A stretch of DNA of 18,425 bases. It comes from a virus. This document shows, in pieces, positions 1,791-17,365 of this stretch; the first letter of the stretch is position 1, and the number at the start of each line of letters is the position of its first letter. The notes under the pieces were generated by a model. The model had not been told where the DNA came from. It worked only from the letters and a program-made list of their open reading frames with translations, and did no database searches. Where the stretch lies: the UHGV virus genome UHGV-2152132. The stretch is one strand, 5' to 3'. The position numbers were made by a program, and so were the translations under genes.

Positions 1791-3336
1791 ATAGTTCCCT
1801 CACTTTCATGCGAGTAATAATTTGTAGAAGTTTATCAAGATTATCAAATCTATAGAGATCTAATCGAATGTTGTTTGTTTCCGTCATGCACATTTTATTA
1901 TATTCGTTTTCAATCTTTGGTATGATATAAAAATCAAGAGGTGAAATATTTTGTGAATTCATTCGTATAACAATTGTTATGTCTGCTTTCTGTGAGTTAT
2001 CAAACCGGACTTTCCATCTAAGTTTACCTGATTTCATATGTATGCATTTAGTAACAAGGACGGAAATTAAAAACTCATCATTGATGTAAAGCATTGGGGC
2101 ATATTTATACTCGTCTATATGACAGTTGCTTTTTAAAATTTCACCCTTAAAATCCTCAATTATCTCTGAGTAAAATGATCTTAGTGCTTCATTTATTTTG
2201 AGATAGCTGTAATCATGTTCTGGCTTATAACCAATCAAAGTATATGCTCTTAAAAGACCACCAAATCGGGTTCTATAAACAGAAGATGAAGGGCCTGTAT
2301 CATCTTCATCAATGATAAAGCCTGATAGTTTTCCATTAGATTCTAATTTTTGTTTTAGTTTTTCTAATAGATCTTCATTAGTCAAATGAATGGATCGGAG
2401 CTGAATTATTTCTTGAGCTTTATTGTATTTTTTCTTTGAAATAATAGGTTTATATGCCTTGTCACATCTAACCCATTCATGTTTGGGGTTTTTTACAAGC
2501 CTACTTTTTAATTTAGATGAGGTTTTGTTATATATGTTGTTTCCAATATATTTTTCATTTGTCAAAATTTGATGTATTTTTGCACGAGTCCATAATGTAC
2601 CATTTTCTGCAGGTATGTTCTGTTCATTTAATCTCTCAGCAATAATGAATTCTGGGACGTTATTATCTATAAAGAGATCATATATTCTATTTACAATTTT
2701 TATTTCATTTTTTGGTCCCGGAATTAATATTACCCTATCTGTTTGAATACTCTTTCTTTTGCGGAAACTCAATATTTCTTTAGCTATGCCATTTTCGTCT
2801 ACTAAAAGACGTCTCAGCCCATAACCAGCCATACCGCCTTGATGATAACCAAGCTTTATTAAATTTACTTGCCCTATAAATACCTTTTCAGATAGATTCC
2901 TGCTGTGATATGCAGCACTAGATCTTTTTATATTCAGTATAACAGAGGACTCTAAAGGGAAATCTTTAGTGGGTATAGGTTCGGAACAATATATAAGATC
3001 TACACCATTTCTCTCAAATAGAAAGGAATAATATGCCGCTTCATCACTATTTTGAAAACGACCAAAACGGCTCACATCATAAAATAATACAGCCTGTATA
3101 TCTATTTTCTTTTGTTCTACATCGCTAAGTAACTGCTGCAAAGAATGCCTGCCTACGATACTGACTCCGCTCTTACCTGAATCATCGTAGGTATAAGCGA
3201 TTTCCATATTGTTCTTTTCAGCATAATCTTTGATATATTCGGACTGATTATGTAAAGAATATTGCTGATGGTCGGTAGACATCCTCAAGTACTGCGCGAC
3301 CCTAACTCTATGATTTTTGTCATTTTCGCTAGCCAT
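1780..3336 (-). CDS. Large serine recombinase (resolvase/invertase catalytic domain plus recombinase domain, atypical C-terminus)
   Basis: 518-aa ORF. VAQYLRMSTDHQQYSLHNQ...DDSGKSG...LFYDVSRFGRF is the serine-recombinase catalytic domain, with the nucleophile Ser in RMST. The middle region (GYGLRRLL..., HEWVRCDKAYKPIISKKKYNKAQ) looks like the recombinase domain of large serine recombinases. I see no Cys4 zinc ribbon. The last ~130 aa are unassigned. GAGG (3345-3348, minus strand) lies 8 nt upstream of the ATG at 3336. Confidence 0.85.
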   Translation of the reverse strand: MASENDKNHRVRVAQYLRMSTDHQQYSLHNQSEYIKDYAEKNNMEIAYTYDDSGKSGVSIVGRHSLQQLLSDVEQKKIDIQAVLFYDVSRFGRFQNSDEAAYYSFLFERNGVDLIYCSEPIPTKDFPLESSVILNIKRSSAAYHSRNLSEKVFIGQVNLIKLGYHQGGMAGYGLRRLLVDENGIAKEILSFRKRKSIQTDRVILIPGPKNEIKIVNRIYDLFIDNNVPEFIIAERLNEQNIPAENGTLWTRAKIHQILTNEKYIGNNIYNKTSSKLKSRLVKNPKHEWVRCDKAYKPIISKKKYNKAQEIIQLRSIHLTNEDLLEKLKQKLESNGKLSGFIIDEDDTGPSSSVYRTRFGGLLRAYTLIGYKPEHDYSYLKINEALRSFYSEIIEDFKGEILKSNCHIDEYKYAPMLYINDEFLISVLVTKCIHMKSGKLRWKVRFDNSQKADITIVIRMNSQNISPLDFYIIPKIENEYNKMCMTETNNIRLDLYRFDNLDKLLQIITRMKVRELYAA

Positions 3337-3359
3337 GCACGAAACCTCATGGATGATTC

Positions 3360-3388
3360 AATACAATGTAGTGGATAAAATTGATCAA
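3360..3388 (-). promoter_or_regulatory. Candidate sigma70 promoter of the recombinase-ParB-ParB operon
   Basis: On the minus strand: TTGATC (3388-3383), 17-nt spacer, TGTATT (3365-3360). Each hexamer matches 4/6, and the predicted start is about 17 nt upstream of the ATG. AT-rich DNA gives many such matches, so this is weak. Confidence 0.25.
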
Positions 3389-3506
3389 ATTTTAACCGAA
3401 TTCAACTGTTTTATCATTGATTAGAGCGAATTTGGTAGATCTTCGAGGTGTATGATAATCGAGAAGAGATGTGAATTATTTAGCTGATATGACCGACAGC
3501 TTTCGT

Positions 3507-3556
3507 TATGTGGACTCAATGTCCCCATTTGTAAATGGCTATGCTTAGTCCACATA
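3507..3556. repeat. 50-bp dyad-symmetric site centred on GT (candidate serine-recombinase att/res site or operator)
   Basis: TATGTGGACT caatgtcc CCATTT GT AAATGG ctatgctt AGTCCACATA. There is a perfect 10-bp outer inverted repeat (3507-3516 / 3547-3556) and a perfect 6-bp inner inverted repeat (3525-3530 / 3533-3538) around the central GT at 3531-3532. It lies between the integrase stop and the recombinase start. No T-tract follows on either strand, so it is not a canonical terminator. Confidence 0.6.
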
Positions 3557-3618
3557 GGTTAATGGTGTGATTATTAATTCTTTAACTAAATCAAGATAGT
3601 TAATCCATCATGGGAGAG

Positions 3619-4848
3619 TTATGCGGCAATAACTTTGCATTTTTGAGACGAAACATAGTCACTCCACCATTGCATGAGAACCACCCGTTCAGTGAGATAC
3701 TCTGCACGATTGTAGGCTGCAATTATTTCATCTTTCTTCGAGTGGGCAAGGGCGGCTTCTAAGACATCAGTCCTAAACTTGCCAGACTCCTCAGCAGCCG
3801 TTCTAGCAATGGATCGCATACCGTGAGCTACAAGCTCACCTCCGAAACCCATACGGATTATGGCCGCATTAGCTGTTTGTTCATGCATGTGATTGAGTGG
3901 AGCTTTGATACTGGGGAACACCCACTCTCTATGCCCGCTGATGACTTTCATTAAATCCAAAACTCGCAAAGCTTCTTTGCTCAGTGGAACTTTGTGAGGC
4001 TTCTTCATTTTCATAAACTCCGCCGGGATGTTCCACATGCCAGTTTCAATATCAATATCTGACCATCTTGTGCGAACAGCTTCACCTGGGCGAACCCATG
4101 TGAGAAGTTGCCACTCAATCAGTAGCCTTGTTTCCAAACGGATAGAAGCATTGTTTAGAGCAACCAAGAAGCGAGGGAGTTCGGAAGGGGGTAATGCTGG
4201 CATATTCTGTTTTTTTGGCTTGCTGAACCGTTGCCCCAGGTTGTCTGCCGGGTTGAATTCTATGAGTTCTTCTGTTGCTGCATAGCGGAAAATTTCATTC
4301 AGGCGGGATATGATGCGGCGAAGTGTTTCAAGGACACCTCGTTTTTCTATGGGTTCTAAATGCTGTTTAAGCATTTTAGGGCGAATCTCCTTAATTGGGG
4401 TATCACCCAATGTGGAAAAGATATTTCTCTCTAGGCTTCGCCAGATGTCGTTAGCATGATCTTGGGAGATGCCTGACGTTTTGACTTTCTCATCAAGCCA
4501 CTTCTTGGCTACTGCTTGAAATGTATGTTCCGTGGCATCTTTCAGTGCATTGGCTTTTTGGTTGTTATGAACTTGGGGGTCTATACCATTTGTAAGCAAC
4601 GACAAGTATTCATCACGTAAAGCTCGTGCCTTCGCAAGTGTAAGGTGAGGATAGGTTCCTAAGCTCACCTTAGTTCGCTTTTTGGTCACAGGCACTGCAT
4701 ATCTGAAATACCAATTTTTCTTCCCTCCCTTCGCCAGGGGAGCGATTCGCAACAGCAAACCATCGCCGTCAAAAAGGTTAACCTCTTTTTCGGCAGGTTT
4801 GGTGCTTTTGATTTCAGTGTCAGTGAGCTTCTTAGCGATTTTGGCCAT
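3619..4848 (-). CDS. int: Tyrosine integrase, P4/CP4-57 (IntA/SlpA-like) family
   Basis: The ORF runs 3619-4929. I prefer the ATG at 4848 (MAKIAKKLTDTEIKSTKP...) because this family starts with the K-rich LTDxxIK N-terminus. Catalytic signature: WVRPGEA (R), HGMRSIARTAA (HxxR), AAYNRAEY (Y). It is adjacent to the ssrA 3' copy. Confidence 0.88.
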   Translation of the reverse strand: MAKIAKKLTDTEIKSTKPAEKEVNLFDGDGLLLRIAPLAKGGKKNWYFRYAVPVTKKRTKVSLGTYPHLTLAKARALRDEYLSLLTNGIDPQVHNNQKANALKDATEHTFQAVAKKWLDEKVKTSGISQDHANDIWRSLERNIFSTLGDTPIKEIRPKMLKQHLEPIEKRGVLETLRRIISRLNEIFRYAATEELIEFNPADNLGQRFSKPKKQNMPALPPSELPRFLVALNNASIRLETRLLIEWQLLTWVRPGEAVRTRWSDIDIETGMWNIPAEFMKMKKPHKVPLSKEALRVLDLMKVISGHREWVFPSIKAPLNHMHEQTANAAIIRMGFGGELVAHGMRSIARTAAEESGKFRTDVLEAALAHSKKDEIIAAYNRAEYLTERVVLMQWWSDYVSSQKCKVIAA

Positions 4849-4946
4849 GTTTGGGACCCTCGATTTTAGGACCCATCTTCGTGGGTCCCATTCAGGGTGC
4901 CATAACTCGTAGTTCTCAGCAATTCTCACTAGACTACAATAGACGT

Positions 4947-4978
4947 AAAAAAGCCCGCAGAGCTTGTGCTGTGCGGGC
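4947..4978 (-). terminator. Rho-independent terminator downstream of the displaced ssrA 3' copy
   Basis: Minus strand reads GCCCGCACAGCACAAGCTCTGCGGGC followed by TTTTTT (4952-4947). There is a 7-bp GC-rich stem (4953-4959 / 4972-4978) plus 3 inner pairs and a 4-nt loop. Confidence 0.6.
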
Positions 4979-5010
4979 TTAGTAGACTTTACTGAACTTC
5001 AGTACATCAA

Positions 5011-5059
5011 TATTTGGTGGAGCTGGCGGGAGTTGAACCCGCGTCCGAAATTCCTACAT
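5011..5059 (-). repeat. Displaced copy of the tmRNA 3' end (att core); direct repeat of 17362-17410
   Basis: tggtggagctggcgggagttgaacccgcgtccgaaattcctacat (5015-5059) is identical to 17366-17410. The 4 upstream bases (tatt) are also shared, giving 49 bp. Identity stops at 5060 (a) versus 17411 (c). Confidence 0.92.
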
Positions 5060-5144
5060 ACCATTTTTAGTATAGTAAAAATAGTAATTTATGTTTTAAA
5101 ACAAAGAATTAGTTTTTTGTTGTGTTTGCCCGTTTTATACATTT

Positions 5145-6404
5145 TTAACTCTCCGCCGCCAAATTGCCGCCATCAGGTAGATGCTCATGCTTCATCATTT
5201 GGTGGATAAGAACTTCTACTTTTCTGAAGGTCGTATTGTCATAGTACTCAACAAGTGATTCATCGAAATCCTCTATCCAACCTTTTGCTGGGCCATTTGT
5301 TTGATATCTGACGGCAGTTGGTGAGTGGAAGTTGGGAGTAGCCTTTAAAGTGCTAAACACAGCCCATGATACTGGGTTAGTCACTTTAAATATTCTCTTC
5401 AATTCAGGGCAGTACAACGTGTTTGGTACAGTTATTCGTTCCATTTTAGGGGGTAAGATTACATTAATACCGATGTCACTATCTTTTTGATTAAGTATTT
5501 TTGTCGAACGATACGATATTCCAGAAATATCCTTGTTGCTATCACTGCTAATCCATTGCATTAATAGGTTTGGAATAATGTATTCTTTGTGAAAATTTGC
5601 ATGTTCATGATCTTTTGTATAGTTACAGGCCAATACTAAAGGCCATGCGATTAGTTTTGAAACCTTATCATTAATCGGGTCTGAGAAATCACTATAATTT
5701 TCATTGTTGTATTCATCTATGCGTTCAGGCTCAAATGAAAATGAATGCTCACTTGGAGTGGAACGTAGTGCTGACGTTAGGTTGTATCCGAGGTCTAGTA
5801 TTCTAATTTGTGATGATTCGTCTTCAGTAATAAATGATGATATATACAGCTTATCGAAATCTGGTTTTCCCATCTCTTGCCAGCAAACAAATATTGATGT
5901 CCCAAGATATAGACATGGTAAACCTGAAACTGAGAAGCGTTGTGCGCTTACCAAATGTCTTTGACTAAAAGGAATGTGGAATAATTCTTCTCTATTTTTT
6001 AGTATGTTTTCACTTTTCCTAACCCGAAATAACGGAGTTCGTCTATTACAAAGTTTTGTTAACGGAACCGTCATTTGATAAATGTGGTTCTTCATTGCTG
6101 GTGAACCTATTATAGCTTGGTTGAAAGTATTATAGGCTTCTTTAATATTACCGTTAAGATAATGGGTTAACGTTTCAGATATTTTATTGGAGAATGTTGT
6201 GATTGAAATCGATCTTTTTTTTACCTCTTTTATTGTTTCGTTGTCTGGATAGTCCTTTCTTATTTTATCAATAGCTTCAAGATAACAATCAATCCTGTTT
6301 TTAAAGTTGGATACAATGTCGCCATTGGCCTTGAATGGGGGTTGAAGTAGTTCATATTGTAATAATGAATCTGATATTTCTTTCAGTTCTGAATATTTGC
6401 GCAT
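5145..6404 (-). CDS. RES-domain protein (419 aa), candidate NAD+-targeting toxin/abortive-infection effector; prophage cargo
   Basis: LFRVRKSE...ELFHIPFSQRHLVSAQRFSVSGLPCLYLGTSIFVCWQEMGKP matches the RES-domain core (Arg in xRFx, G.P.LYL, Glu). ISGISYRSTKILNQKDSDIGINVILPP supplies the conserved Ser and the following NxxxF/L strand. A ~130-aa helical N-terminal region and a ~90-aa C-terminal extension are unassigned. The ATG at 6404 is 10 nt after the int stop on the same strand. GC is lower than in the neighbouring phage genes (22/60 at 5221-5280). Confidence 0.62.
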   Translation of the reverse strand: MRKYSELKEISDSLLQYELLQPPFKANGDIVSNFKNRIDCYLEAIDKIRKDYPDNETIKEVKKRSISITTFSNKISETLTHYLNGNIKEAYNTFNQAIIGSPAMKNHIYQMTVPLTKLCNRRTPLFRVRKSENILKNREELFHIPFSQRHLVSAQRFSVSGLPCLYLGTSIFVCWQEMGKPDFDKLYISSFITEDESSQIRILDLGYNLTSALRSTPSEHSFSFEPERIDEYNNENYSDFSDPINDKVSKLIAWPLVLACNYTKDHEHANFHKEYIIPNLLMQWISSDSNKDISGISYRSTKILNQKDSDIGINVILPPKMERITVPNTLYCPELKRIFKVTNPVSWAVFSTLKATPNFHSPTAVRYQTNGPAKGWIEDFDESLVEYYDNTTFRKVEVLIHQMMKHEHLPDGGNLAAES

Positions 6405-6414
6405 GAGAATTATT

Positions 6415-7431
6415 TCAATTAAGGTTGATTAATGGATTCTTAGTCACAGCATCTTCGAGATGTTCTGGAGAAAAATGTGCATATATCATTGTCATTTTAA
6501 TATCAGTGTGACCCAAGATTTCTTTAAGTACCAGTATGTTTCCGCCGTTCATCATAAAGTGACTGGCGAATGTATGACGCAGAACGTGGGTACATTGACC
6601 TTCCGGCAGCTCAATACCGGCCCTCTTTACTGCTCGTTCAAAAGCTTTTCTGCATGGAGTGAATAATTTTCCTCTCTTTTTGGGGAGTTCGTCATACAGA
6701 TCCTGTGATATTGGCACTGTTCTGTTTTTCTTGCCCTTAGTCTTGGTGTAAGTGATGCGGTATTTTGACAACTGGTGTCCCTGTAGGTTTTCGGCTTCAC
6801 TCCATCGCGCGCCGGTGGCCAGGCAGATTTTTGTAATCAAAAGCAGGCTGGGGCTTTGAGAATCAGCGCAGGCATCCAGCAGACGTTTAATTTCTTCCGG
6901 GGTCAGGAACGCCAGTTCACCCTCAGCAATTTTAAATGTTGGCAGCCCGGCAAGTGGGTTGGGGGCTGACCAATGGCCCAGCTTTTTCAGTGTACCAAAT
7001 ACCGATGATAGGTTACGCTGTTCAAGGTTTACCGTGCGGGGCTTAACGGGCGACATAAGCGTGCCATCTTCATTTCGCACTTCACCTTTTAGCCGTGCTT
7101 CGCGGTATTTCGTAAAGTCACCGGCTGTCAGTTCTGAGGCGATGGGATCGCCTAGACCATTACAGATAATTTTAAGTTTCGCCATGAGGCGCTTGGGGTC
7201 TGCGAGTGTCTGACCGTACAGGGAATACCAAAGCTCAATTAATTCTGATAGGCGTCGCCGATCATCCTTTTCTCCTAACCACGGTTTTTTGTTCACTTCT
7301 TCCATTGTGAAGCTTTCAAACGCAATAGCTTCGCCTTTGGTAGCAAATTGCTTACGCACGCGCTTGCCATTGCGTCCATTGGGATAGCACTCACACAACC
7401 ATTTTCCGTTCGGCTGTTTTCTGATGGTCAT
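6415..7431 (-). CDS. int: Tyrosine integrase, P2/186 family
   Basis: 338 aa. MTIRKQPNGKWLCECYPNGRNGKRVRKQFATKGEA closely parallels my recollection of the 186 Int N-terminus. Catalytic motifs are ATGARWSEAE, HVLRHTFASHFMMNGGNILVLKEILGH and MTMIYAHF. Its ATG lies 1 nt after the cI stop. Confidence 0.92.
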   Translation of the reverse strand: MTIRKQPNGKWLCECYPNGRNGKRVRKQFATKGEAIAFESFTMEEVNKKPWLGEKDDRRRLSELIELWYSLYGQTLADPKRLMAKLKIICNGLGDPIASELTAGDFTKYREARLKGEVRNEDGTLMSPVKPRTVNLEQRNLSSVFGTLKKLGHWSAPNPLAGLPTFKIAEGELAFLTPEEIKRLLDACADSQSPSLLLITKICLATGARWSEAENLQGHQLSKYRITYTKTKGKKNRTVPISQDLYDELPKKRGKLFTPCRKAFERAVKRAGIELPEGQCTHVLRHTFASHFMMNGGNILVLKEILGHTDIKMTMIYAHFSPEHLEDAVTKNPLINLN

Positions 7432-7432
7432 T

Positions 7433-8065
7433 TCAAAGGCTCTTAATGATTTTCAGTGCGCGGCCTACTACCTCAATGTCATCCAGGCCGCACTCAAACG
7501 ATGAATCATCCTGATGCACTACTAATTTGTTTCCCGGGAGTCGAGTCAATTTAACGATGCTTTTTATCCCGTCGATATCGACTAACCACATACCATTTAC
7601 TGGTGGTGTTTGGTTGCGATCTATTAAATAAGAATCACCAGAAGTAGTCACCAGCAGTAGGTTGCTTGAGTCTGAGGGGAGTATGCTGCTATCAATGATT
7701 GCTTTTCCAGCATCGACCAATAAACCACCGTTGAGAGTCGCCTTGTCAATTTCAGGAGATACTAGTTCAGAAAGAGGTACAACCTTGCTGGAGTTCACGG
7801 AATTGATATTTTTTTTAGGTTCAATGTTTGGACCTGGCTCCCCCTGTCCGGTGGTTAGCCACAGTAAAGAAACTCCTGTTTCCAAGGCGCACTGAATCAC
7901 CCACTCTGCAGGAAAACTATCTCTTAAGTATCTGTTTGCCATGGTGCTTTTTGATGCGCCTAAGTGATCGCAAAGTTGCTGTCTGGACTTGAAATCATAG
8001 GCTGCCATTAGTCTATGGATAGCCTCTCTTCCCCCTGTATTCTCTCCAACCTTTACCTGTATCAT
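7433..8065 (-). CDS. cI: Immunity repressor, 186 CI-like
   Basis: 210 aa. The N-terminal HTH region (QQLCDHLGASKSTMANRYLR...CALETGVSLLWLTTGQGEP) resembles 186 CI as I recall it. It sits upstream of int and divergent from apl. AGGA lies 8-9 nt upstream of the ATG at 8065. Confidence 0.8.
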   Translation of the reverse strand: MIQVKVGENTGGREAIHRLMAAYDFKSRQQLCDHLGASKSTMANRYLRDSFPAEWVIQCALETGVSLLWLTTGQGEPGPNIEPKKNINSVNSSKVVPLSELVSPEIDKATLNGGLLVDAGKAIIDSSILPSDSSNLLLVTTSGDSYLIDRNQTPPVNGMWLVDIDGIKSIVKLTRLPGNKLVVHQDDSSFECGLDDIEVVGRALKIIKSL

Positions 8066-8077
8066 TTTTTAATCCTG

Positions 8078-8106
8078 TTGACGTATCAAATATTGGATCG
8101 TAGTAT
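8078..8106 (+). promoter_or_regulatory. pR-like early lytic promoter (drives apl-cII)
   Basis: TTGACG (8078-8083), exactly 17 nt of spacer, TAGTAT (8101-8106). One copy of the 17-bp repeat fills the spacer and the second copy sits at the predicted start site. Confidence 0.55.
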
Positions 8107-8129
8107 CTCGATGTATCAAATATTGAATC
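8083..8129. promoter_or_regulatory. Two 17-bp direct repeats GTATCAAATATTGRATC, 30 bp apart (candidate CI operators)
   Basis: Copy 1 is at 8083-8099 (GTATCAAATATTGGATC) and copy 2 at 8113-8129 (GTATCAAATATTGAATC), matching 16/17. Each contains a short dyad TCAA-N3-TTGR. They overlap the pR-like promoter. Confidence 0.5.
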
Positions 8130-8131
8130 AA
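8102..8131 (-). promoter_or_regulatory. Possible pL-like lysogenic promoter, face-to-face with pR
   Basis: On the minus strand: TTGATT (8131-8126), 18-nt spacer, GATACT (8107-8102), each 4/6. It would give transcripts convergent and overlapping with pR, as known for P2 Pe/Pc and 186 pR/pL. This call is weak. Confidence 0.3.
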
Positions 8132-8132
8132 G

Positions 8133-8160
8133 TAAAACGAGATAAAACGACGTAAACCAA
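8133..8160 (+). promoter_or_regulatory. Three 10-bp-phased direct repeats TAAAACGA / TAAAACGA / TAAACCAA (candidate Apl/Cox boxes)
   Basis: Copies at 8133-8140, 8143-8150 and 8153-8160, between the pR start and the apl RBS. They resemble the P2 Cox-box style TTAAAGNCA, which is arranged as helically phased direct repeats. Confidence 0.4.
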
Positions 8161-8184
8161 ACCTTAATCGGGAGATACTGCACT

Positions 8185-8427
8185 ATGAGCACTGATATTT
8201 CAATTCGTGTACCAAAAGAGATGGCTACGCCTGCAGAGTTCGCGGAATGGGAAGGTATCTCCCGCGGCTCCGTGTATCAAAAAATTCACCATGGTCAGCT
8301 TGCTAAATACATGGTCAAGAAAGAAAAAAACAAAGGCCGCGTAAGCCTGCGTTATTTAATGTACAAAACCGATCAGGTCCGTGAATCCCTCGGTCATTCC
8401 AACTTCCGCGTCATTGTTGGTAAGTAA
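8185..8427 (+). CDS. apl: Apl/Cox-like excisionase and transcriptional regulator
   Basis: 80 aa. It is the first gene of the rightward operon, divergent from cI. The C-terminal ESLGHSNFRVIVGK resembles the 186 Apl C-terminus (LGHSRFQLVIGA as I recall). GGGAG lies 9 nt upstream of the ATG. Confidence 0.7.
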   Translation: MSTDISIRVPKEMATPAEFAEWEGISRGSVYQKIHHGQLAKYMVKKEKNKGRVSLRYLMYKTDQVRESLGHSNFRVIVGK

Positions 8428-8459
8428 GTTCAATTATGAGAACTTTCTAAGGGGGTAGC

Positions 8460-8855
8460 ATGTTTGATTATAAGATTTCCAAACACCCGCATTTTGATGA
8501 AGCCTGTAGAGCTTTTGCACTTCGTCACAATATGGCGAAGCTGGCAGAACGTGCAGGAATGAATGTCCAGACTCTGCGAAACAAACTCAACCCAGATCAA
8601 CCGCATCAGCTCAATGCGCCAGATATCTGGCTACTTACCGATCTGACGGAAGATTCAACGCTGGTAGACGGTTTTCTGGCACAGATTCACTGCCTGCCAT
8701 GTGTACCGATTAATGAGGTGGCAAAAGAGAAACTGCCACATTACGTCATGAGTGCAACCGCAGAGATCGGGCGTGTTGCTGCAGGTGCGGTATCCGTTCC
8801 GACGTTCCTCGTTGCCGCTTCTCCCAAACCAACGTTTAAGAAAATGCAGAGGTAA
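8460..8855 (+). pseudogene. cII: cII (186-type) truncated at about codon 112 and fused to foreign sequence
   Basis: Residues 1-112 (MFDYKISKHPHFDEACRAFALRHNMAKLAERAGMNVQTLRNKLNP...GAVS) track 186 CII as I recall it (169 aa). The remaining 19 aa (VPTFLVAASPKPTFKKMQR) read through antisense tail-fibre sequence and the invertase crossover site. Confidence 0.7.
8819..8844. promoter_or_regulatory. Hin/Gin/Cin/Pin-type 26-bp crossover site (invertase-proximal, orphan)
   Basis: TTCTCCCAAACC AA CGTTTAAGAAAA compares with hixL TTCTTGAAAACC AA GGTTTTTGATAA. There are two imperfect inverted 12-bp half-sites around an AA core, 55 bp upstream of the invertase ATG. No second inverted copy was found in the window. 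Confidence 0.7.
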
Positions 8856-8899
8856 CAGCTAACTGGCATCATCTCCGGTTTTTATTCAGGGGGATGATC

Positions 8900-9466
8900 A
8901 TGCTTATTGGCTATGTACGCGTGTCAACAAATGACCAGAACACCGATTTGCAACGTAATGCACTGAACTGCGCGGGATGTGAGCAGATTTTTGAGGACAA
9001 AATCAGTGGCACTAAGTCCGACAGACCGGGGCTGAAAAAACTACTCAGGACACTATCGGCAGGAGACACGCTGGTTGTCTGGAAGCTGGACAGGTTGGGG
9101 CGCAGTATGCGGCATCTTGTTACGCTGATAGAAGAGTTGCGCCAGCGTGGTGTGAATTTCAGAAGCCTGACTGACAGTATTGATACCAGTACCCCAATGG
9201 GCCGTTTCTTTTTTCATGTCATGGGTGCCCTGGCTGAAATGGAACGCGAACTGATAGTTGAACGTACCAGGGCAGGGCTGGCTGCAGCTCGTGCCAAAGG
9301 CAGAGTAGGTGGACGCCGTCCTAAGTTGACCACCGAACAGTGGGCACAGATTGGGCGTTTACTCGAGGCCGGAGAATCAAGACAGCGTATTGCACTGATT
9401 TTTGATGTAGGCGTTTCTACCATTTATAGAAAATTTCCGGCAAATAAGATCAATGAATCCCCCTGA
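8900..9466 (+). CDS. Site-specific DNA invertase, Hin/Gin/Cin/Pin family (small serine recombinase)
   Basis: MLIGYVRVSTNDQNTDLQRNAL...DTLVVWKLDRLGRS...MGRFFFHVMGALAEMERELIVERT...GVSTIYRKFP is near-collinear with Pin/Hin. I prefer the start at 8900 (family N-terminus, GGGGG 6-7 nt upstream). The track ORF starts at 8894. Confidence 0.92.
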   Translation: MLIGYVRVSTNDQNTDLQRNALNCAGCEQIFEDKISGTKSDRPGLKKLLRTLSAGDTLVVWKLDRLGRSMRHLVTLIEELRQRGVNFRSLTDSIDTSTPMGRFFFHVMGALAEMERELIVERTRAGLAAARAKGRVGGRRPKLTTEQWAQIGRLLEAGESRQRIALIFDVGVSTIYRKFPANKINESP

Positions 9467-9514
9467 ATCAGCATTATGTTGATTATCCCTGCAAGCAGAC
9501 AAATACCGTTATTT

Positions 9515-9572
9515 TGTGTGAATAACGACACAACTGCGCTTAGCTGTTTGTCAGGCACAATCACTTCAACAT
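9515..9572 (+). promoter_or_regulatory. PF-like Ogr-dependent late promoter
   Basis: TGT-N12-ACA dyad at 9515-9532 (TGTgtgaataacgacACA), the activator-binding element of P2-family late promoters, which is centred near -55. A candidate -10 CAACAT at 9567-9572 puts the start about 55 bp from the dyad centre and about 30 nt upstream of the FI ATG. Confidence 0.5.
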
Positions 9573-9608
9573 AGGGCGAAGCCTAATCCAATCAGGAGGT
9601 TCGCCACT

Positions 9609-10781
9609 ATGGCTCAGGATTACCACCACGGGGTGCGCGTTGTTGAAGTCAACGAAGGCACCCGATCTATTACCACGGTGAGCACCGCCATCGTGGGTAT
9701 GGTCTGCACGGGCGATGATGCCGATGCAAAAATGTTTCCTCTTAATAAACCCGTGCTGATCACTGATGTGCTGACTGCCAGCGGTAAAGCGGGTGAGTCA
9801 GGTACTCTGGCCCGTTCGCTGGATGCCATCGCTGACCAGGCAAAACCCGTGACCATTGTTGTGCGTGTGCCGCAGGGTGAAACGGAAGACGAAACCACGA
9901 CCAATATCATCGGCGCAGTGACTGCTGAAGGTAAAAAAACAGGTATGAAAGCCCTGTTATCTGCCCAGTCACAGCTCGGCGTTAAACCGCGCATTCTCGG
10001 CGTGCCAGGCCACGACACCAAGGCGGTAGCTACTGAGTTGCTGAGCGTGGCGCAAAGCCTGCGTGGATTTGCTTACCTGTCAGCGTATGGCTGCAAGACA
10101 GTGCAGGAGGCGATCACTTACCGCGAAAACTTCAGCCAGCGCGAAGGGATGCTGATCTGGCCTGACTTTACTGGCTGGGACACGGTGCTGAATGCCGAAG
10201 CAACGGCATATGCCACCGCCCGTGCGCTTGGTCTGCGCGCCAAAATTGACGAGCAGACCGGATGGCACAAAAGCCTGTCCAACGTGGGCGTGAACGGTGT
10301 CACCGGAATTTCTGCAGATGTGTTCTGGGATCTGCAGGACCCGGCAACCGATGCAGGTCTGCTGAACCAGAACGACGTCACCACGCTTGTGCGTAAAGAC
10401 GGTTTCCGCTTCTGGGGTTCCCGCTGCCTGAGTGATGACCCGCTCTTTGCCTTCGAAAACTACACCCGCACGGCGCAGGTGCTGATGGACACGATGGCAG
10501 AAGCACACATGTGGGCGGTGGATAAACCGCTTAACCCGTCGCTGGCCCGCGACATTATCGAAGGTATCCGCGCCAAAATGCGCAGCCTGGTCAGTCAGGG
10601 CTATCTCATTGGTGGTGATTGCTGGCTGGATGAGTCGGTGAACGACAAAGACACGCTGAAAGCCGGAAAACTCACCATCGACTACGACTACACGCCAGTG
10701 CCGCCACTTGAAAACCTGATGCTGCGTCAGCGCATCACCGATCAGTACCTGGTGAATTTCGCCAGCCAGGTCAGCGCGTAA
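9609..10781 (+). CDS. FI: Contractile tail sheath protein (P2 gpFI)
   Basis: 390 aa. [54 protein letters not shown] matches the P2 FI N-terminus as recalled. AGGAGG RBS. Confidence 0.93.
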
Positions 10782-10790
10782 GGGGACAAC

Positions 10791-11306
10791 ATGGCTTTAC
10801 CACGCAAATTAAAACACCTGAACCTGTTTAACGACGGGAACAACTGGCAGGGGATCGTTGAATCGCTGACGCTGCCGAAATTTACCCGCAAATATGAGAA
10901 GTATCGCGGCGGCGGAATGCCGGGTGCGGTGGATGTGGATCTGGGGCTTGATGACAGTGCGCTGGACACAGAATTTTCCATTGGTGGTACTGAATTGCTG
11001 CTGTTTAAACAGATGGGTAAAGCCACGGTGGATGGCATCCAGCTGCGCTTTACCGGCTCTATTCAGCGTGACGATACCGGGGAAGTGCAGGCCGTGGAGC
11101 TTGTCGTGCGTGGACGTCACAAAGAAGTGGATTCCGGCGAGTGGAAGACGGGCGAAAGCAACACCACCAAAGTGACCAGTACCAACAGCTACGCGAAGCT
11201 GACCATCAATGGTGAGGTGCTCTATGAAGTGGACCTTATCAACATGGTGGAAATTGTGGACGGTGTGGACCTGATGGAAGCGCACCGCAACGCCCTCGGC
11301 CTCTGA
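10791..11306 (+). CDS. FII: Tail tube protein (P2 gpFII)
   Basis: 171 aa. MALPRKLKHLNLFNDG...LPKFTRKYEKYRGGGMPGAVDVDLGLDD parallels P2 FII. AAGGGG RBS. Confidence 0.92.
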   Translation: MALPRKLKHLNLFNDGNNWQGIVESLTLPKFTRKYEKYRGGGMPGAVDVDLGLDDSALDTEFSIGGTELLLFKQMGKATVDGIQLRFTGSIQRDDTGEVQAVELVVRGRHKEVDSGEWKTGESNTTKVTSTNSYAKLTINGEVLYEVDLINMVEIVDGVDLMEAHRNALGL

Positions 11307-11360
11307 TATATCTGAACGGCGCGGGATACCGCGCCAGAACCCAATTGACAGGACAGCAAA

Positions 11361-11663
11361 ATGAGCGATAAGCAGACTGAAAAGACCATTCAACTGGATA
11401 CCCCCATCAAGCGCGGTAAAACAGAAATCACCGAAATTGTGCTGCGTAAACCGCAGTCCGGTGCGCTGCGCGGTACACGCCTGCAGGCCATTATGGATAT
11501 GGATGTAAACGCGATGATGACCGTGATCCCCCGCATCTCCAGTCCGGCACTGACTGCACAGGAAATTGCAGAGATGGACCCGGCAGATCTCACTGCCATG
11601 TCGGTTGAGGTTGTCACTTTTTTGTTGAAGAAGTCGGTGCTTGCCGGTTTACCGACAGCCTGA
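11361..11663 (+). CDS. E: Tail assembly chaperone gpE (zero-frame product)
   Basis: 100 aa, positioned between FII and T. Contains the conserved slippery T TTT TTG. Confidence 0.85.
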   Translation: MSDKQTEKTIQLDTPIKRGKTEITEIVLRKPQSGALRGTRLQAIMDMDVNAMMTVIPRISSPALTAQEIAEMDPADLTAMSVEVVTFLLKKSVLAGLPTA

Positions 11664-11797
11664 CGGTTGACGATCTGGTGGCAGATATCGCCACCATTTT
11701 TCACTGGCCGCCATCCGTTACTGACGTTATGCCGCTGACCGAAGTGCTGGAATGGCGGTATAAAGCGATTCAGAGAAGCGGGGCCAACGATGAGTGA
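11361..11797 (+). CDS. E+E': Tail assembly chaperone gpE+E' (programmed -1 frameshift product)
   Basis: A -1 slip at 11618-11624 continues as VEEVGACRFTDSLTVDDLVADIATIFHWPPSVTDVMPLTEVLEWRYKAIQRSGANDE, ending at TGA 11795-11797. ADIATIFHWPP...RSG matches the P2 E' tail as recalled. The total is about 145 aa. Confidence 0.8.
11618..11624 (+). other. Slippery heptamer T TTT TTG for the E/E+E' -1 frameshift
   Basis: I checked the frame by hand. 11618 is the third position of codon T86, then TTT (F87) and TTG (L88). The -1 frame stays open for 57 codons. Confidence 0.8.
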
Positions 11798-14700
11798 TAA
11801 CAACCTGCGTCTGCAGGTCATTCTTAATGCGGTTGACAAGCTCACCCGCCCATTTCGATCTGCGCAGGCCAGTTCAAGAGAACTGGCTGCTGCTGTCAAA
11901 AAATCCCGCGATGCAATAAAGCAGCTTGATCAGGCCGGGAGCAGTCTGGACAGCTTCCGAAAGCTGCAGGCAGAAAATCAGAAATTAGGCGACAGGCTGA
12001 ACTATGCCCGCCAGCGTGCAAATTTGCTCAGTCAGGAACTGGGAGCGATGGGGCCGCCTTCGCAACGTCAGGTTGTTGCTCTGGGCCGTCAACGGCTGGC
12101 TGTTCAGCGCCTGGAAGAACGCCAGAAAAAGCTGCAGCAGCAGACGGCGCTTGTGCGTGCTGAACTGTACCGGGCGGGAATTTCTGCGAAAGACGATGCG
12201 GGAGCAACTGCCCGTTTAGCCCGTGAAACATCACGTTATAACCAGGAACTTTCGAAACAGGAGGCGCGGCTGAAGCGACTGGGGGAAGCTCAGCGCAGGA
12301 TGAATGCAGCGCGTGCCAGTTATGCCCGTTCGCTGGAGGTGCGTGATCGTATTGCAGGTGCCGGAGCCACCACCACGGCTGCAGGGCTGGCAATGGGTGC
12401 GCCAGTGATGGCGGCAGTAAAAAGCTATACCAGCATGGAAGATGCCATGAAAGGTGTGGCAAAGCAGGTCAATGGTCTGCGTGACGATAATGGCAACCGC
12501 ACTGCACGTTTTTATGAAATGCAGGATGCCATCAAGGCTGCCAGCGAACAGTTGCCGATGGAAAACGGTGCGGTGGACTTCGCTGCACTGGTTGAAGGTG
12601 GTGCGCGCATGAACGTCGCAAACCCTGACGACAGCTGGGAAGATCAGAAACGTGACCTGCTGGCCTTCGCCAGTACGGCAGCAAAGGCGGCAACAGCCTT
12701 TGAGCTGCCAGCGGATGAACTGTCAGAAAGTCTGGGGAAAATCGCCCAGCTCTACAAAATCCCCACCCGCAATATTGAACAGCTCGGTGATGCGCTGAAC
12801 TATCTGGATGATAACGCCATGTCGAAAGGGGCAGACATCATTGATGTGATGCAACGTCTGGGCGGTGTGGCTGACCGTCTGGATTATCGTAAAGCGGCGG
12901 CGCTGGGTTCCACCTTCCTGACACTGGGCGCTGCGCCAGAGGTTGCAGCCAGTGCAGCAAACGCGATGGTGCGTGAATTGTCCATTGCCACCATGCAAAG
13001 CAAGAGTTTCTTTGAAGGGATGAATCTGCTGAAACTCAATCCTGAAGTGATTGAAAAGCAGATGACGAAGGATGCGATGGGAACCATCCAGCGCGTGCTG
13101 GAGAAGGTAAACGCGCTGCCGCAGGACAAGCGCCTGTCTGCCATGACTATGTTGTTTGGTAAAGAGTTTGGCGATGACGCGGCGAAACTGGCAAACAACC
13201 TGCCGGAACTGCAGCGTCAGTTAAAACTGACAGCGGGCAATGATGCGCTTGGCTCCATGCAAAAAGAATCCGACATTAACAAGGATTCACTTTCTGCGCA
13301 GTGGTTGCTGGTCAAAACCGGAGCGCAGAACACCTTCAGCAGCCTGGGCGAAACGCTGCGCCAGCCGCTGATGGATATTCTGTACACGGTGAAAAGCGTC
13401 ACGGGGGCGTTGCGTCGCTGGGTGGAAGCTAACCCGGAACTGACAGGCACACTGATGAAAGCATCGGCTGTTGTGGCTGCGGTTACCGTCGGCCTCGGCA
13501 CCTTAGCGGTGGCGCTGGCTGCAGTGCTGGGGCCGCTGGCAGTGATCCGTCTGGGATTCTCTGTGTTGGGTATCAAAACGTTATCTTCCGTTACGGCAGC
13601 AGTAACTCGAACCAGCAGCGCGTTGTCCTGGCTGGCTGGCGCACCACTGGCACTGCTGCGACGCGGGCTTGCTTCATCGGGCAACGCCGCAGGTTTACTT
13701 ACTGCGCCGTTGTCGTCTTTGCGCCGCACGGCATCACTGACGGGAAATGTCCTGAAAACTGTAGCAGGTGCGCCGGTTGCACTTTTGCGGTCTGGATTAT
13801 CCGGTTTACGTGCTGTTGCTGTGATGTTTATGAATCCTCTGGCGGTACTGCGCGGTGGACTGGCCGCCGCAGGCACGGTGCTGCGAGTACTGGCATCTGG
13901 TCCACTGGCGATGCTGCGCGTTGCCCTGTATGCCATATCTGGTCTGTTAGGTGCTCTGCTCAGTCCGATAGGTCTTGTGGTTACTGCACTGGCGGGCGTG
14001 GCGCTGGTTGTCTGGAAATACTGGCAACCCATCACCGCATTTCTCGGTGGCGTGGTGGAAGGATTCAAAGCGGCGGCAGGTCCCATCAGTGCAGCGTTCG
14101 AACCGCTTAAGCCCGTGTTCCAGTGGATTGGCGACAAAGTGCAGGCGCTGTGGGGCTGGTTTACTGATCTGCTGACGCCCGTTAAGTCGACCTCTGCCGA
14201 ACTGCAGAGCGCAGCGGCAATGGGGCGGCGATTCGGGGAGGCACTGGCGGAAGGGCTGAATATGGTCATGCATCCGCTGGACTCCCTGAAATCCGGCGTT
14301 TCCTGGTTGCTGGAGAAGCTCGGCATTGTCAGTAAAGAGGCCGCAAAGGCAAAACTGCCGGAAAGCGTGACGCGTCAGCAACCTGCGACGGTGAATGCAG
14401 ACGGTAAAGTGATGATGCCATCGGGTGGTTTTCCATCATGGGGATATGGCTTTGCGGGGATGTATGACAGCGGCGGGTATATCCCGCGCGGGCAGTTTGG
14501 CATCGTCGGTGAAAACGGGCCGGAAATTGTTAACGGCCCGGCAAATGTGACCAGCCGGAGAAATACAGCTGCACTGGCTGCCGTTGTTGCCGGAATGATG
14601 GGCGTTGCTGCCGCGCCAGCAGAGCTTCCACCGTTGCACCCCTTGGCACTTCCCGCGAAAGGTGGAGAAGCAATTGTGAGTCGCGCAGCCACTGTGCCAC

Positions 14701-14867
14701 TCGTTCAACGGATTGAGGCACCGACGCAGATCATCATTCAGACGCAGCCAGGACAAAGTGCGCAGGATATTGCGCGGGAGGTGGCACGCCAGCTTGATGA
14801 ACGTGAACGCAGGCTGAAGGCAAAAGCCAGGAGTAACTACAGCGATCAGGGGGGATACGACGCATGA
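11790..14867 (+). CDS. T: Tail tape measure protein (P2 gpT-like)
   Basis: 1025 aa. It has a coiled-coil-like N-terminus, a central hydrophobic repeat block and a Gly-rich C-terminus. It lies directly after E/E', and its ATG overlaps the E' stop (gATGAGTGA). Confidence 0.9.
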   Translation: MSDNNLRLQVILNAVDKLTRPFRSAQASSRELAAAVKKSRDAIKQLDQAGSSLDSFRKLQAENQKLGDRLNYARQRANLLSQELGAMGPPSQRQVVALGRQRLAVQRLEERQKKLQQQTALVRAELYRAGISAKDDAGATARLARETSRYNQELSKQEARLKRLGEAQRRMNAARASYARSLEVRDRIAGAGATTTAAGLAMGAPVMAAVKSYTSMEDAMKGVAKQVNGLRDDNGNRTARFYEMQDAIKAASEQLPMENGAVDFAALVEGGARMNVANPDDSWEDQKRDLLAFASTAAKAATAFELPADELSESLGKIAQLYKIPTRNIEQLGDALNYLDDNAMSKGADIIDVMQRLGGVADRLDYRKAAALGSTFLTLGAAPEVAASAANAMVRELSIATMQSKSFFEGMNLLKLNPEVIEKQMTKDAMGTIQRVLEKVNALPQDKRLSAMTMLFGKEFGDDAAKLANNLPELQRQLKLTAGNDALGSMQKESDINKDSLSAQWLLVKTGAQNTFSSLGETLRQPLMDILYTVKSVTGALRRWVEANPELTGTLMKASAVVAAVTVGLGTLAVALAAVLGPLAVIRLGFSVLGIKTLSSVTAAVTRTSSALSWLAGAPLALLRRGLASSGNAAGLLTAPLSSLRRTASLTGNVLKTVAGAPVALLRSGLSGLRAVAVMFMNPLAVLRGGLAAAGTVLRVLASGPLAMLRVALYAISGLLGALLSPIGLVVTALAGVALVVWKYWQPITAFLGGVVEGFKAAAGPISAAFEPLKPVFQWIGDKVQALWGWFTDLLTPVKSTSAELQSAAAMGRRFGEALAEGLNMVMHPLDSLKSGVSWLLEKLGIVSKEAAKAKLPESVTRQQPATVNADGKVMMPSGGFPSWGYGFAGMYDSGGYIPRGQFGIVGENGPEIVNGPANVTSRRNTAALAAVVAGMMGVAAAPAELPPLHPLALPAKGGEAIVSRAATVPLVQRIEAPTQIIIQTQPGQSAQDIAREVARQLDERERRLKAKARSNYSDQGGYDA

Positions 14868-15349
14868 TGATGGTGCTGGGATTGTACGTGTTTATGCTGC
14901 GCACCGTTCCGTATCAGGAACTGCAGTATCAACGCAGCTGGCGACATGCGGCAAACAGTCGGGTAAACCGACGTCCGTCCACGCAGTTTCTGGGACCGGA
15001 AAACGACATGCTGACGCTTTCCGGTGTTCTTATGCCGGAAATAACAGGCGGCAGGCTGTCGTTGCTGGCACTGGAGCAGATGGCAGAACAGGGGAAAGCA
15101 TGGCCCCTGATTGAAGGCAGCGGCACGATTTACGGCATGTATGTGATTGAGGGACTGAATCAGACTAAAACGGAGTTTTTCCGCGACGGTATGCCGCGCC
15201 GGATTGAGTTCACCCTGTCGCTCAAACGAGTGGATGAATCCCTGTCCGATATGTTCGGTGATCTCAGTGCGCAACTGAATAATCTGCAGGACACGGCAAC
15301 GTCTGCCTTAAGCGATATCAGTAAAACGGTGGGAGGGCTGCTGTCGTGA
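14864..15349 (+). CDS. U: Tail protein gpU
   Basis: 161 aa. MMMVLGLYVFMLRTVPYQ...LSGVLMPEITGG...AWPLIEGSGTIYGMYVIEGL...RRIEFTLSLKRVDE parallels P2 gpU. ATGA overlap with the T stop. Confidence 0.9.
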   Translation: MMMVLGLYVFMLRTVPYQELQYQRSWRHAANSRVNRRPSTQFLGPENDMLTLSGVLMPEITGGRLSLLALEQMAEQGKAWPLIEGSGTIYGMYVIEGLNQTKTEFFRDGMPRRIEFTLSLKRVDESLSDMFGDLSAQLNNLQDTATSALSDISKTVGGLLS

Positions 15350-16446
15350 ATTTCAGCTCTGAACTGCTTAACAAAGGCAACAAAACTCCCGCATTCAGCA
15401 TCAGTATTGAGGGCAGGGATATCACCACTGTGCTGGATAACCGCCTGATGAGTTTGACGCTGACGGATAACCGGGGCTTTGAAGCGGACCAGCTTGATCT
15501 GGAGCTGGATGACGCTGACGGAAAAATCGTGCTGCCGCGCCGTGGTGCGGTTATTACGCTGGCGCTGGGCTGGAAGGGGCAGCCGCTTTTCCCGAAAGGG
15601 GCATTCACAGTGGACGAGATTGAACACACTGGCGCACCGGACCGCCTGACTATCCGGGCGCGAAGTGCTGATTTTCGGGAAACGCTGAATACCCGCCGTG
15701 AAAAATCGTGGCATAAGACCACCGTCGGGGAAGTGGTGAAGGAAATAGCCGCGCGGCACAAGCTGAAGATGGCCCTGGGTAAAGACCTGTCGGATAAGCC
15801 CGTGGAGCATATAGACCAGACTAATGAGAGTGACGGCAGTTTTCTGATGCGGCTGGCGCGACAGTACGGTGCCATCGCGTCGGTGAAAAATGGCAATCTG
15901 TTATTCATCCGGCAGGGGCAGGGCAAAAGCGCCACTGGTAAACCTCTGCCAGTGATCACTATCACACGCAAGGACGGCGACAGTCACCGATTTACCCTGG
16001 CAGATCGCGGAGCCTACACGGGCGTAATTGCCAGCTGGTTGCATACCCGCGAACCTGCGAAGAAAGAAAGCACCACGGTGAAGCGTAAGCGCAGAACTAA
16101 GAAGCAGAAGAAAGAGCCGGAAGCGAAGCAGGGCGATTACCTGGTGGGTACGGATGAAAACGTGCTGGTACTTAATCGCACTTATGCCAACCGGAGCAAC
16201 GCTGAACGGGCAGCGAAAATGCAGTGGGAACGCCTGCAACGCGGCGTTGCGTCATTCTCGCTACAACTGGCGGAAGGGCGGGCAGATCTTTACACGGAAA
16301 TGCCAGTGAAAGTTAGTGGCTTTAAACAACCGATAGATGATGCGGAATGGACCATTACGACTCTGACTCATACCGTCAGCCCGGATAATGGTTTTACGAC
16401 CAGTATTGAACTCGAAGTGAAGATTGATGATCTTGAAATGGAATAA
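15346..16446 (+). CDS. D: Tail protein gpD (late control D family)
   Basis: 366 aa with a GTG start overlapping the U stop (GTGA). GGGAGGG RBS at 15331-15337. Contains a Phage_GPD-like segment (SDGSFLMRLARQYGAIASVKNGNLLF). Confidence 0.88.
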   Translation: MNFSSELLNKGNKTPAFSISIEGRDITTVLDNRLMSLTLTDNRGFEADQLDLELDDADGKIVLPRRGAVITLALGWKGQPLFPKGAFTVDEIEHTGAPDRLTIRARSADFRETLNTRREKSWHKTTVGEVVKEIAARHKLKMALGKDLSDKPVEHIDQTNESDGSFLMRLARQYGAIASVKNGNLLFIRQGQGKSATGKPLPVITITRKDGDSHRFTLADRGAYTGVIASWLHTREPAKKESTTVKRKRRTKKQKKEPEAKQGDYLVGTDENVLVLNRTYANRSNAERAAKMQWERLQRGVASFSLQLAEGRADLYTEMPVKVSGFKQPIDDAEWTITTLTHTVSPDNGFTTSIELEVKIDDLEME

Positions 16447-16514: not shown

Positions 16515-16733
16515 ATGATGAATTGTCCAAAGTGTGGTCATGCGGCACACACAAGGAGCAGTTTTCAAGTAACTGAAAGCACCAAAGAGCGTTACTGCCA
16601 GTGCCAAAATATTAACTGCGGGAGCACTTTTGTTACCCATGAAACAGTGGTCCGGTTTATTGTGACACCCGCACTGATTGCTACTGCTCCTCCACATCCA
16701 TTGCCAGGTGGTCAGGGGCATATGAATTTTTGA
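16515..16733 (+). CDS. ogr: Ogr zinc-finger late-gene transcriptional activator
   Basis: Starting at the ATG at 16515 gives 72 aa with Cys4, Cys7, Cys30 and Cys35, exactly the P2 Ogr spacing (MMNCPKCGHAAHTRSS...KERYCQCQNINCGSTF). The track ORF (16470) adds 15 unsupported residues. A possible -10 TACAAT lies at 16479-16484. Confidence 0.9.
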   Translation: MMNCPKCGHAAHTRSSFQVTESTKERYCQCQNINCGSTFVTHETVVRFIVTPALIATAPPHPLPGGQGHMNF

Positions 16734-16740
16734 GAAAGAG

Positions 16741-16764
16741 AACCTGCTACGGCAGGTTTTTATT
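16741..16764 (+). terminator. Rho-independent terminator after ogr, overlapping the stop of the convergent gene
   Basis: AACCTGC tacg GCAGGTT followed by TTTTATT. The 7-bp stem is at 16741-16747 / 16752-16758. Confidence 0.6.
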
Positions 16765-17242: not shown

Positions 17243-17270
17243 GTGAAACCTCTTTGCATGATTTCAAGAG

Positions 17271-17305
17271 GGCGACAGGCAAGATAGACGCAAAAGTCTG
17301 TCGCC
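17271..17305. repeat. 8-bp perfect inverted repeat GGCGACAG-N19-CTGTCGCC upstream of the WYL-BRCT gene
   Basis: Arms at 17271-17278 and 17298-17305, 29-63 nt upstream of the ATG at 17242. It could be an operator or a 5'-UTR hairpin. Confidence 0.45.
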
Positions 17306-17355: not shown

Positions 17356-17365
17356 TTGTTTTATT

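Follow-up and report, generated by a model that had tools for sequence, protein, structure and literature searches.

How did a prophage come to carry a cII gene that runs into antisense tail-fibre sequence, close to the crossover site of a DNA invertase that has no second site to pair with? The question is raised by UHGV-2152132, a viral genome stretch of 18,425 nucleotides (nt), which in its whole length is called the window below. The window corresponds to the ssrA locus of Escherichia coli, its right end carrying ssrA and smpB at 99.9% identity to E. coli, and a P2-like (Peduoviridae) prophage remnant sits between two ssrA repeats. An earlier interpretation of the letters alone (the sequence-only reading) had proposed that one deletion, reaching roughly from the replication genes to the tail-fibre genes, fused cII to the inside of an invertible fibre segment. 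In this work the window was compared with intact relatives, and the prophage locus of E. coli PEC1011 (L006) supplied the reference coordinates. The proposed deletion is very probably correct, and its left end falls at a breakpoint in cII that is shared by many other E. coli prophage remnants.

The fusion of cII to tail-fibre sequence

The features at and around the fusion are the following (window positions):

8460-8855, plus strand: cII fusion open reading frame of 131 amino acids (aa), with 112 native codons (8460-8795) followed by 19 codons from antisense fibre sequence and the crossover site
8788-8794: deletion junction, a 7-nt microhomology (CGGTATC) common to parental cII and parental Sv'
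8795-8818, minus strand: 24-bp remnant of the 5' end of Sv' (the alternative tail-fibre segment), the inner edge of the lost invertible segment
8819-8844: invertase-proximal 26-bp crossover site, with its AA core at 8831-8832
8900-9466, plus strand: intact Gin/Pin-type DNA invertase of 188 aa (Pfam Resolvase, 2.2e-53; HTH_7, 1.4e-15)

Residues 1-112 of the fusion product (ending ...AAGAVS) aligned to the 169-aa CII proteins of SEN8 and PEC1011, and the final 19 residues (VPTFLVAASPKPTFKKMQR) were unmatched. The Pfam family Phage_CP76 (186-type CII) was matched only at profile positions 1-111 of 146. At the DNA level, intact cII genes are 100% identical to the window through 8794 and the identity ends there; in four E. 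coli genomes the 100% identity likewise extends to this base, beyond which a normal cII continues. The end of CII homology, which the sequence-only reading had put after GAVS at about 8795, is confirmed by these alignments. A short cII is not natural to this lineage, in which 121 intact genes of 510 nt were counted and 1221 of 1293 E. coli copies were full length. The identical 131-aa fusion protein was found on three gut-metagenome contigs.

On the other side of the join, positions 8795-8818 are identical to the start of Sv' in LF4-1, MSB1_9D and pSX12-2, with the minus-strand translation ...EAATRNVGT. The minus strand of 8789-8845 translates to IFLNVGLGEAATRNVGTDT, and in intact LF4-1 the matching sequence is annotated as opening a gp53-like tail-fibre segment, ...CIFLNVGLGEAATRNVGTGTG. 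The fibre origin that had been suggested for this antisense stretch therefore stands, also for its part at 8796-8818, but the proposed length of about 20 bp does not: the fibre-derived stretch measures 24 bp, or at most 31 bp if the shared CGGTATC is included. The fibre-type parents MSB1_9D and pSX12-2 are 100% identical to the window from 8788. Both parental types were recovered; they share the 7 nt, and no recombinase site lies at the join.

In E. coli PEC1011 the same ssrA site is occupied by an intact prophage of 35.6 kb, and the neighbouring genes are the same. Two collinear blocks were found, window 3652-8794 corresponding to L006 5326-10467 and window 8818-11889 to L006 33385-36456. Compared with PEC1011, ∼22.9 kb has been lost between cII codon 113 and the start of Sv', including the replication, capsid, lysis, baseplate and fibre genes and the distal crossover site, in agreement with the single internal deletion that had been proposed. 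The PEC1011 prophage has no more than three copies of CGGTATC on that strand, and the 7-nt match, one of the few exact 7-mers available, is enough to account for a right end beside the crossover site. The retained genes are full length and the flanks are 99-100% identical to complete phages; the event therefore looks recent. Over 14 kb the window is matched at 100% identity by a human-gut MEGAHIT contig that belongs to another record. We consider it very likely that 8788-8794 marks a single collinear microhomology deletion of ∼22.9 kb in a P2-like prophage at ssrA, with its left end at a break-prone, recurrent site in cII.

Two other origins of the junction were weighed. It could be an assembly chimera of two parts of one intact prophage or of two prophages, as might be suspected from the fact that the window and its identical relatives are short-read metagenome assemblies, with a left arm nearest Felsduovirus-type immunity regions and a right arm nearest a Wadgaonvirus phage. 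We regard this as highly improbable: the two parts share 7 nt only, far under any assembler k-mer, the identical junction is present on three contigs, a single pair of att repeats at ssrA encloses both arms, just as in the intact relative, and like junctions occur in finished genomes including BL21(DE3). Deletions at secondary quasi-sites are known for Cin and other invertases, and the junction is near the crossover site, but the chance that the invertase deleted the block by pairing this site with a quasi-site in cII is slimmer still, since the join is 37-44 bp from the AA core with the complete 26-bp site and 24 bp beyond it kept (so that the junction is not invertase-made, an origin that the sequence-only reading had also called unlikely), cII around the break has no half-site resemblance (the best other 26-mer has 10 mismatches), and 16 other deletions that start at this cII point have their right ends a long way from any crossover site. 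On its own, the window's junction is ordinary prophage decay that left an orphan invertase.

A recurrent breakpoint in cII

8782-8799, plus strand: recurrent breakpoint zone in cII, parental sequence GCAGGTGCGGTA^TCTGG

Counting the window, 17 different right partners were found joined to cII across E. coli, including BL21(DE3), with left ends within ∼7 nt (GCGGT/A/TC/T/GG). Twelve of these junctions were obtained at the nucleotide level and five at the protein level. All are collinear deletions with the partner downstream and constant polarity, and the microhomology at the junctions, judged with stand-in parents, is 0-7 nt. The hotspot prophages occupy two integration sites and have different integrases. 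The nucleotide-level junctions came from the contexts of clustered proteins and from scans whose seed, cII nt 70-92, does not depend on the breakpoint; their right partners are:

Window: Sv', L006 ∼33361
L010: gene D, L006 40257
L013: P-O spacer, L006 22052
L014: gene I, L006 30352
L015: gene W, L006 28647
L016: E', L006 36300
L063: fibre gene H
L129: L006 36212
L142: L006 40695
L145: L006 40036
BL21(DE3) (L160): gene A, L006 ∼13838
A21005-2 (L161): gene A, L006 12806

The fusion tails of the five protein-level junctions were located in the lysozyme gene, T, Q, N and FI. Clustered at 90% identity, the fusion protein falls in a group of 26 truncated CII proteins of 123-141 aa; among the 15 cluster members listed, residues 1-111 or 1-112 are common and are followed by 11 unrelated tails.

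The frequency of the breakpoint was estimated from samples chosen independently of it, in which four first deletions began at the hotspot and six elsewhere in the ∼10-kb early region. Among complete E. coli genomes, a 341-nt stretch of cII across the site was incomplete in 72 of 1293 copies, a figure to which clonal copies may contribute, and three of four sampled incomplete copies ended at the hotspot. A control stretch of 331 nt in gene A was incomplete in only 1 of 1254 records. Searching for homologues of intact CII listed full-length proteins only and hence gave no breakpoint distribution, and scanning genome contigs with a cII pattern returned one divergent match. We concluded that the cII breakpoint is a real and quantified regularity; no description of it turned up in the literature searched.

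In BL21(DE3) (L160, NC_012892.2 874852-876297), the deletion extends from the cII hotspot into gene A, and two adjacent pseudogenes are annotated there. This ybjL-rcdA remnant resembles the one in the window in belonging to the same family, in carrying int-cI-apl-cII' on one side and late genes with ogr on the other, and in sharing the cII breakpoint. It differs in its partner (gene A instead of Sv') and in its location, the window's prophage being integrated at ssrA. Farther along the BL21(DE3) P2-like prophage there is a retron St85-type pair. Several further internal deletions, with 2-12-nt overlaps at the joins, were observed in remnants L013, L015, L133 and L040; the independent remnants L015 and L133 share a right end at ∼L006 40617-40618 in gene D (GAACCCGCGAAG).

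Possible causes of the hotspot

A tentative explanation is that GCAGGTGCGGTA^TCTGG may be a sequence at which an enzyme of the phage, the host or a rival element specifically cleaves or stalls; this enzyme would repeatedly start one-directional deletions that disarm P2-like prophages and spare the immunity region, the integrase and often the tail and accessory genes. A DNA end or nick would arise repeatedly at GGTA^TCTGG in cII, this end would join any downstream sequence offering 0-7 nt of homology, and a prophage without Chi would allow long resection on the free side.

Several results weigh against this explanation or against the deletion history on which it builds. The window's junction was present in 0 of 5426 complete E. 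coli genomes and was seen in metagenome assemblies only; the junction 31-mer was found neither in the genome-contig scan nor in JGI metagenomes. A single protein cluster, which admits only proteins with at least ∼111 shared residues, supplied 11 of the 17 junctions. Many of the 72 incomplete cII copies may be clonal, for example as B-strain derivatives; the 17 junctions are distinct and therefore independent of that clonality. Chi-stopped RecBCD resection does not account for the site, as canonical Chi (GCTGGTGG) is absent from both strands of the 44-kb L006 (1-44001, prophage and flanks). The local GCAGGTGC at the hotspot has two mismatches to Chi, and a 6/8 reverse Chi-like octamer was noticed by eye in only 2 of 12 right flanks. 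A secondary att/Int site was rejected on the grounds that the match to the att core is only 6 nt and that ybjL-rcdA prophages with another integrase use the same hotspot. Synonymous conservation showed no excess that would indicate a functional DNA element. Finally, the hotspot matches the phage origin (ori) no better than 86% of random windows, i.e. at chance level, and this counts equally against the initiator nick considered below.

Other candidates were tried and set aside. The distance of the join from the core speaks against an invertase quasi-site in cII, where no likeness to a half-site was found. The real cos lies at L006 19030, downstream of the ends of the deletions in BL21 and L161; loss of cos is therefore not required, and cos or a pseudo-cos was rejected. 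A hairpin across the junction had a minimum free energy no lower than with random partners (p = 0.72). An insertion sequence at the hotspot was dismissed because all 17 partners are phage DNA. By eye, none of the XerC arm (GGTGCG), Ter, Dcm/Vsr or restriction sites fits the cut position.

One rival account takes the hotspot for a secondary site at which the phage's gene A protein, a rolling-circle initiator and HUH endonuclease, nicks the DNA; the fixed 3' end so formed would be joined downstream by strand transfer or microhomology-mediated repair. The pattern of one fixed end, one variable end and a single direction fits such an account, as does the strand of the site, which is that of gene A and of the annotated P2 ori nick. 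On the deleted side, ..GGTA or ..TA is a common ending of the partner's flank, and a 25.6-kb deletion in L058 has its start in gene A, following GCAGGTGCGCCGGTA^CTGG, which nearly repeats the cII motif. The near-copy at L006 14240-14270 reads AAGCAGGTGCGCCGGTA^CTGG, and the L058 deletion begins exactly after its GGTA. In M13 and pC194, deletions ending at origin nicks have one fixed end. The cII hotspot is like these origin-nick hotspots in that the endpoint is fixed within a few nt, the partners vary and the homology is 0-7 nt, and unlike them in that the fixed end in cII has no resemblance to the phage ori. Single-stranded DNA from rolling-circle replication stimulates illegitimate recombination, as mentioned in PMC5703833. 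The annotated P2 nick is GCGCCTCG^GAGTCCTGTCAATAAC, and a homologous P2/186-type ori is found at L006 14556 (GCGCCCCTTGGACTCGTGGCAATAACTG). However, the P2 nick position would fall 2-3 nt upstream of the observed ends, none of the deletions seen ended at the true ori, and the near-copy in gene A is seldom an endpoint (the single incomplete record among the 1254 ended elsewhere). We consider the initiator nick unlikely, with enough in its favour to be kept in mind.

It is also conceivable that deletions start everywhere and that only those cutting CII at residues 111-112 persist, either because a stable and active CII locks repression or because a toxic product is avoided. C-terminal truncation of CII can matter: 186 CII cut to 145 residues is stabilised and fully active, and the prophage carrying it induces poorly (PMC7708051). 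Selection at the protein level would nevertheless not restrict the ends to ∼7 nt, truncations at codons 87 and 146 persist too (L042 and L133), and the GGTA-centred microhomology points to a cause at the DNA level, which together make selection on CII improbable.

The retained right flanks often start with (N)ACCG or CCG (window 8795-8801, L010, L013, L016, L063, L129 and L145). The left CGGT and an ACCG-type right flank form small palindromes at the join, e.g. CGGTACCG. Right flanks with at least four bases complementary to the left CGGT were found at 6 of 10 junctions vs. 12% expected, in a post hoc comparison.

The orphan invertase and the retained genes

The crossover site TTCTCCCAAACCAACGTTTAAGAAAA occurs once in the window (chance expectation 0.00), at 8819-8844 as the sequence-only reading had it, and codes for ...FLNVGLGE... 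in the fibre. Every other 26-mer of the window differs from it at 10 positions or more. In intact relatives, H-Sv-tfa / tfa'-Sv' lie between two inverted sites, and the partner site TTCTCGCATACCTTGGTTTGGGAGAA is inside gene H, ∼1.85 kb off. This partner was not found in the window at up to three mismatches, and the description of a single crossover site without an inverted partner holds for 8.8 kb to the left and 9.6 kb to the right. With only one crossover site remaining and the fibre genes gone, the invertase has no local segment to flip. In the lineage the invertase system is active: the invertible segment is found in both orientations (L006 vs. L007).

The invertase gene is intact, as had been stated, with its start refined to 8900, two codons downstream of 8894. 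Residues 1-184 aligned to the Mu Gin structures 3uj3 and 4m6f (E = 3e-93), MLIGYVRVSTNDQ keeps Ser9, and the protein is 100% identical to those of the complete phage 500465-1 and an E. coli C2 prophage. The gene begins 45 bp downstream of the cII' stop, is oriented as the early operon and retains its own upstream region intact. Gin, Hin, Cin and Pin systems use a Fis-dependent enhancer in cis, located within the 5' part of the hin, gin and cin genes; the corresponding 5' coding region is retained here. A weak terminator-like hairpin with a T run at 8861-8880, between the crossover site and the invertase start, is kept in intact relatives.

Like Gin of Mu, Cin of P1, Pin of e14 and Hin, the enzyme is a small serine invertase with Ser9 and HTH_7, and its crossover site has 26 bp with an AA core. 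Unlike these switches, the remnant has one crossover site instead of two inverted ones, and the fibre genes are gone. The inner half-site (window 8817-8832) matches the repeat of the e14 P segment, CCTTCTCCCAAACCAA (PMC12529663), at 15 of 16 bases. The e14 P segment is inverted by PinQ and PinR, whose genes lie in the cryptic prophages Qin and Rac, and PinQ is reported as only 38% identical to PinE (PMC12529663). The invertase in the window resembles PinQ and PinR in being encoded by a defective prophage from which it could act on a segment elsewhere in the chromosome, and differs from PinQ in being Gin-like. Similar crossover sites are present in 2551 of 5426 complete E. coli genomes (47%), in up to nine places per genome. 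By analogy with these systems, it is plausible that the orphan invertase would act in trans on sites elsewhere. The source of one fibre-type parent, L008 (pSX12-2, NZ_CP142787.1), is labelled as a 55.6-kb plasmid and contains a different prophage-like element with Mu-like baseplate genes and an integrase beside dusA. It shares the window's exact Sv' start and crossover site but encodes a less closely related invertase, with 153 of 189 positions identical.

The other features of the remnant are, from left to right:

5011-5059: distal att repeat, a 49-bp copy of the ssrA 3' end, int-side boundary of the remnant (100% identity to 17362-17410)
5145-6404, minus strand: 419-aa cargo open reading frame between the att repeat and int; PEC1011 carries the same gene at the same place
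6415-7431, minus strand: full-length P2-type tyrosine integrase (Pfam Int_N and Phage_integrase; length as in PEC1011)
7433-8065, minus strand: full-length CI immunity repressor (Pfam Phage_CI_repr and Phage_CI_C)
8185-8427, plus strand: Apl/Cox-like excisionase/regulator of 80 aa, with the position and 243-nt length of the SEN8 gene annotated as excisionase
9609-16446, plus strand: six retained tail genes, full length (Pfam; lengths as in intact relatives), namely
9609-10781, plus strand: sheath FI
10791-11306, plus strand: tube FII
11361-11663, plus strand: chaperone E
11790-14867, plus strand: tape measure T
14864-15349, plus strand: tail gene U
15346-16446, plus strand: tail gene D
16515-16733, plus strand: ogr/Delta-type late-gene activator (Pfam Ogr_Delta)
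16760-17242, minus strand: 160-aa cargo open reading frame between ogr and ssrA (no Pfam match; weak PADLOC matches)
17362-17410: proximal att repeat, 49 bp, within the ssrA 3' end
17366-17728, minus strand: ssrA, the tmRNA gene (ARAGORN; 99.9% identity to E. coli ssrA-smpB), whose 3' end contains the proximal att repeat

The gene order att-int-cI-apl-cII ... FI-FII-E-T-U-D-ogr-att, with family proteins identified by Pfam, is collinear with PEC1011, SEN8 and phage 500465-1, and PEC1011 has an equivalent att arrangement (L006 6688-6732 and 42283-42331). The remnant keeps int, cI, apl, both att repeats, the proximal crossover site, the invertase, the six tail genes and ogr. The full set of replication, capsid, lysis, baseplate and fibre genes is lacking, L006 10468-33360 having no counterpart in the window, and with these genes lost the remnant is unable to replicate, package, lyse or make phage. 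The apl gene is 100% identical in DNA to four E. coli prophages, and a Pfam search with its product gave no match. Window 8814-15600 has 99.9% DNA identity to phage 500465-1. Two intervals, 11890-12331 and 16646-17297, were unmatched in the PEC1011 prophage and correspond to a variable part of the tape measure gene and to the ogr-ssrA cargo slot; outside them the right arm is 96-98% identical to that prophage.

For the 419-aa cargo reading frame no match was found in Pfam or PADLOC. The att-int slot that it occupies is variable, and relatives hold unrelated open reading frames of 309, 348 and 366 aa, a 585-aa protein with a dCMP-deaminase domain, or a KAP NTPase. The weak PADLOC matches of the 160-aa frame were to PDC-S48 (1.8e-7) and to the SspE C-terminus (1.3e-3); this frame is kept in several independent remnants, and PEC1011 has another gene in its place. 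A second integrated element adjoins the remnant beyond the distal ssrA repeat (window 1-4929) and is also found beside the L015 prophage and, in part, beside that of PEC1011. Its features are:

1-897 and 894-1790: tandem ParB_N/RepB-like genes
1780-3336: large serine recombinase
3619-4929: P4-type integrase

The window's junction with its orphan invertase is routine; what is new is the recurrent deletion endpoint in cII. The usual picture of prophage inactivation is one of random deletion followed by selection. Here a single spot of ∼7 nt provides the left end of most deletions entering cII and, in the sample chosen regardless of breakpoint, about 4 in 10 first deletions, and the laboratory strain BL21(DE3) shares it. 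Invertible fibre segments have lately been tied to phage defence, and the orphan invertase is a further candidate for controlling them in trans. If a specific enzyme or structure is the cause of the hotspot, this would offer a testable mechanism by which P2-like prophages become harmless remnants with immunity and cargo genes. Should the cleavage or stalling site prove true, it would represent a sequence-encoded route of prophage domestication that has been used many times in E. coli, including the B lineage.

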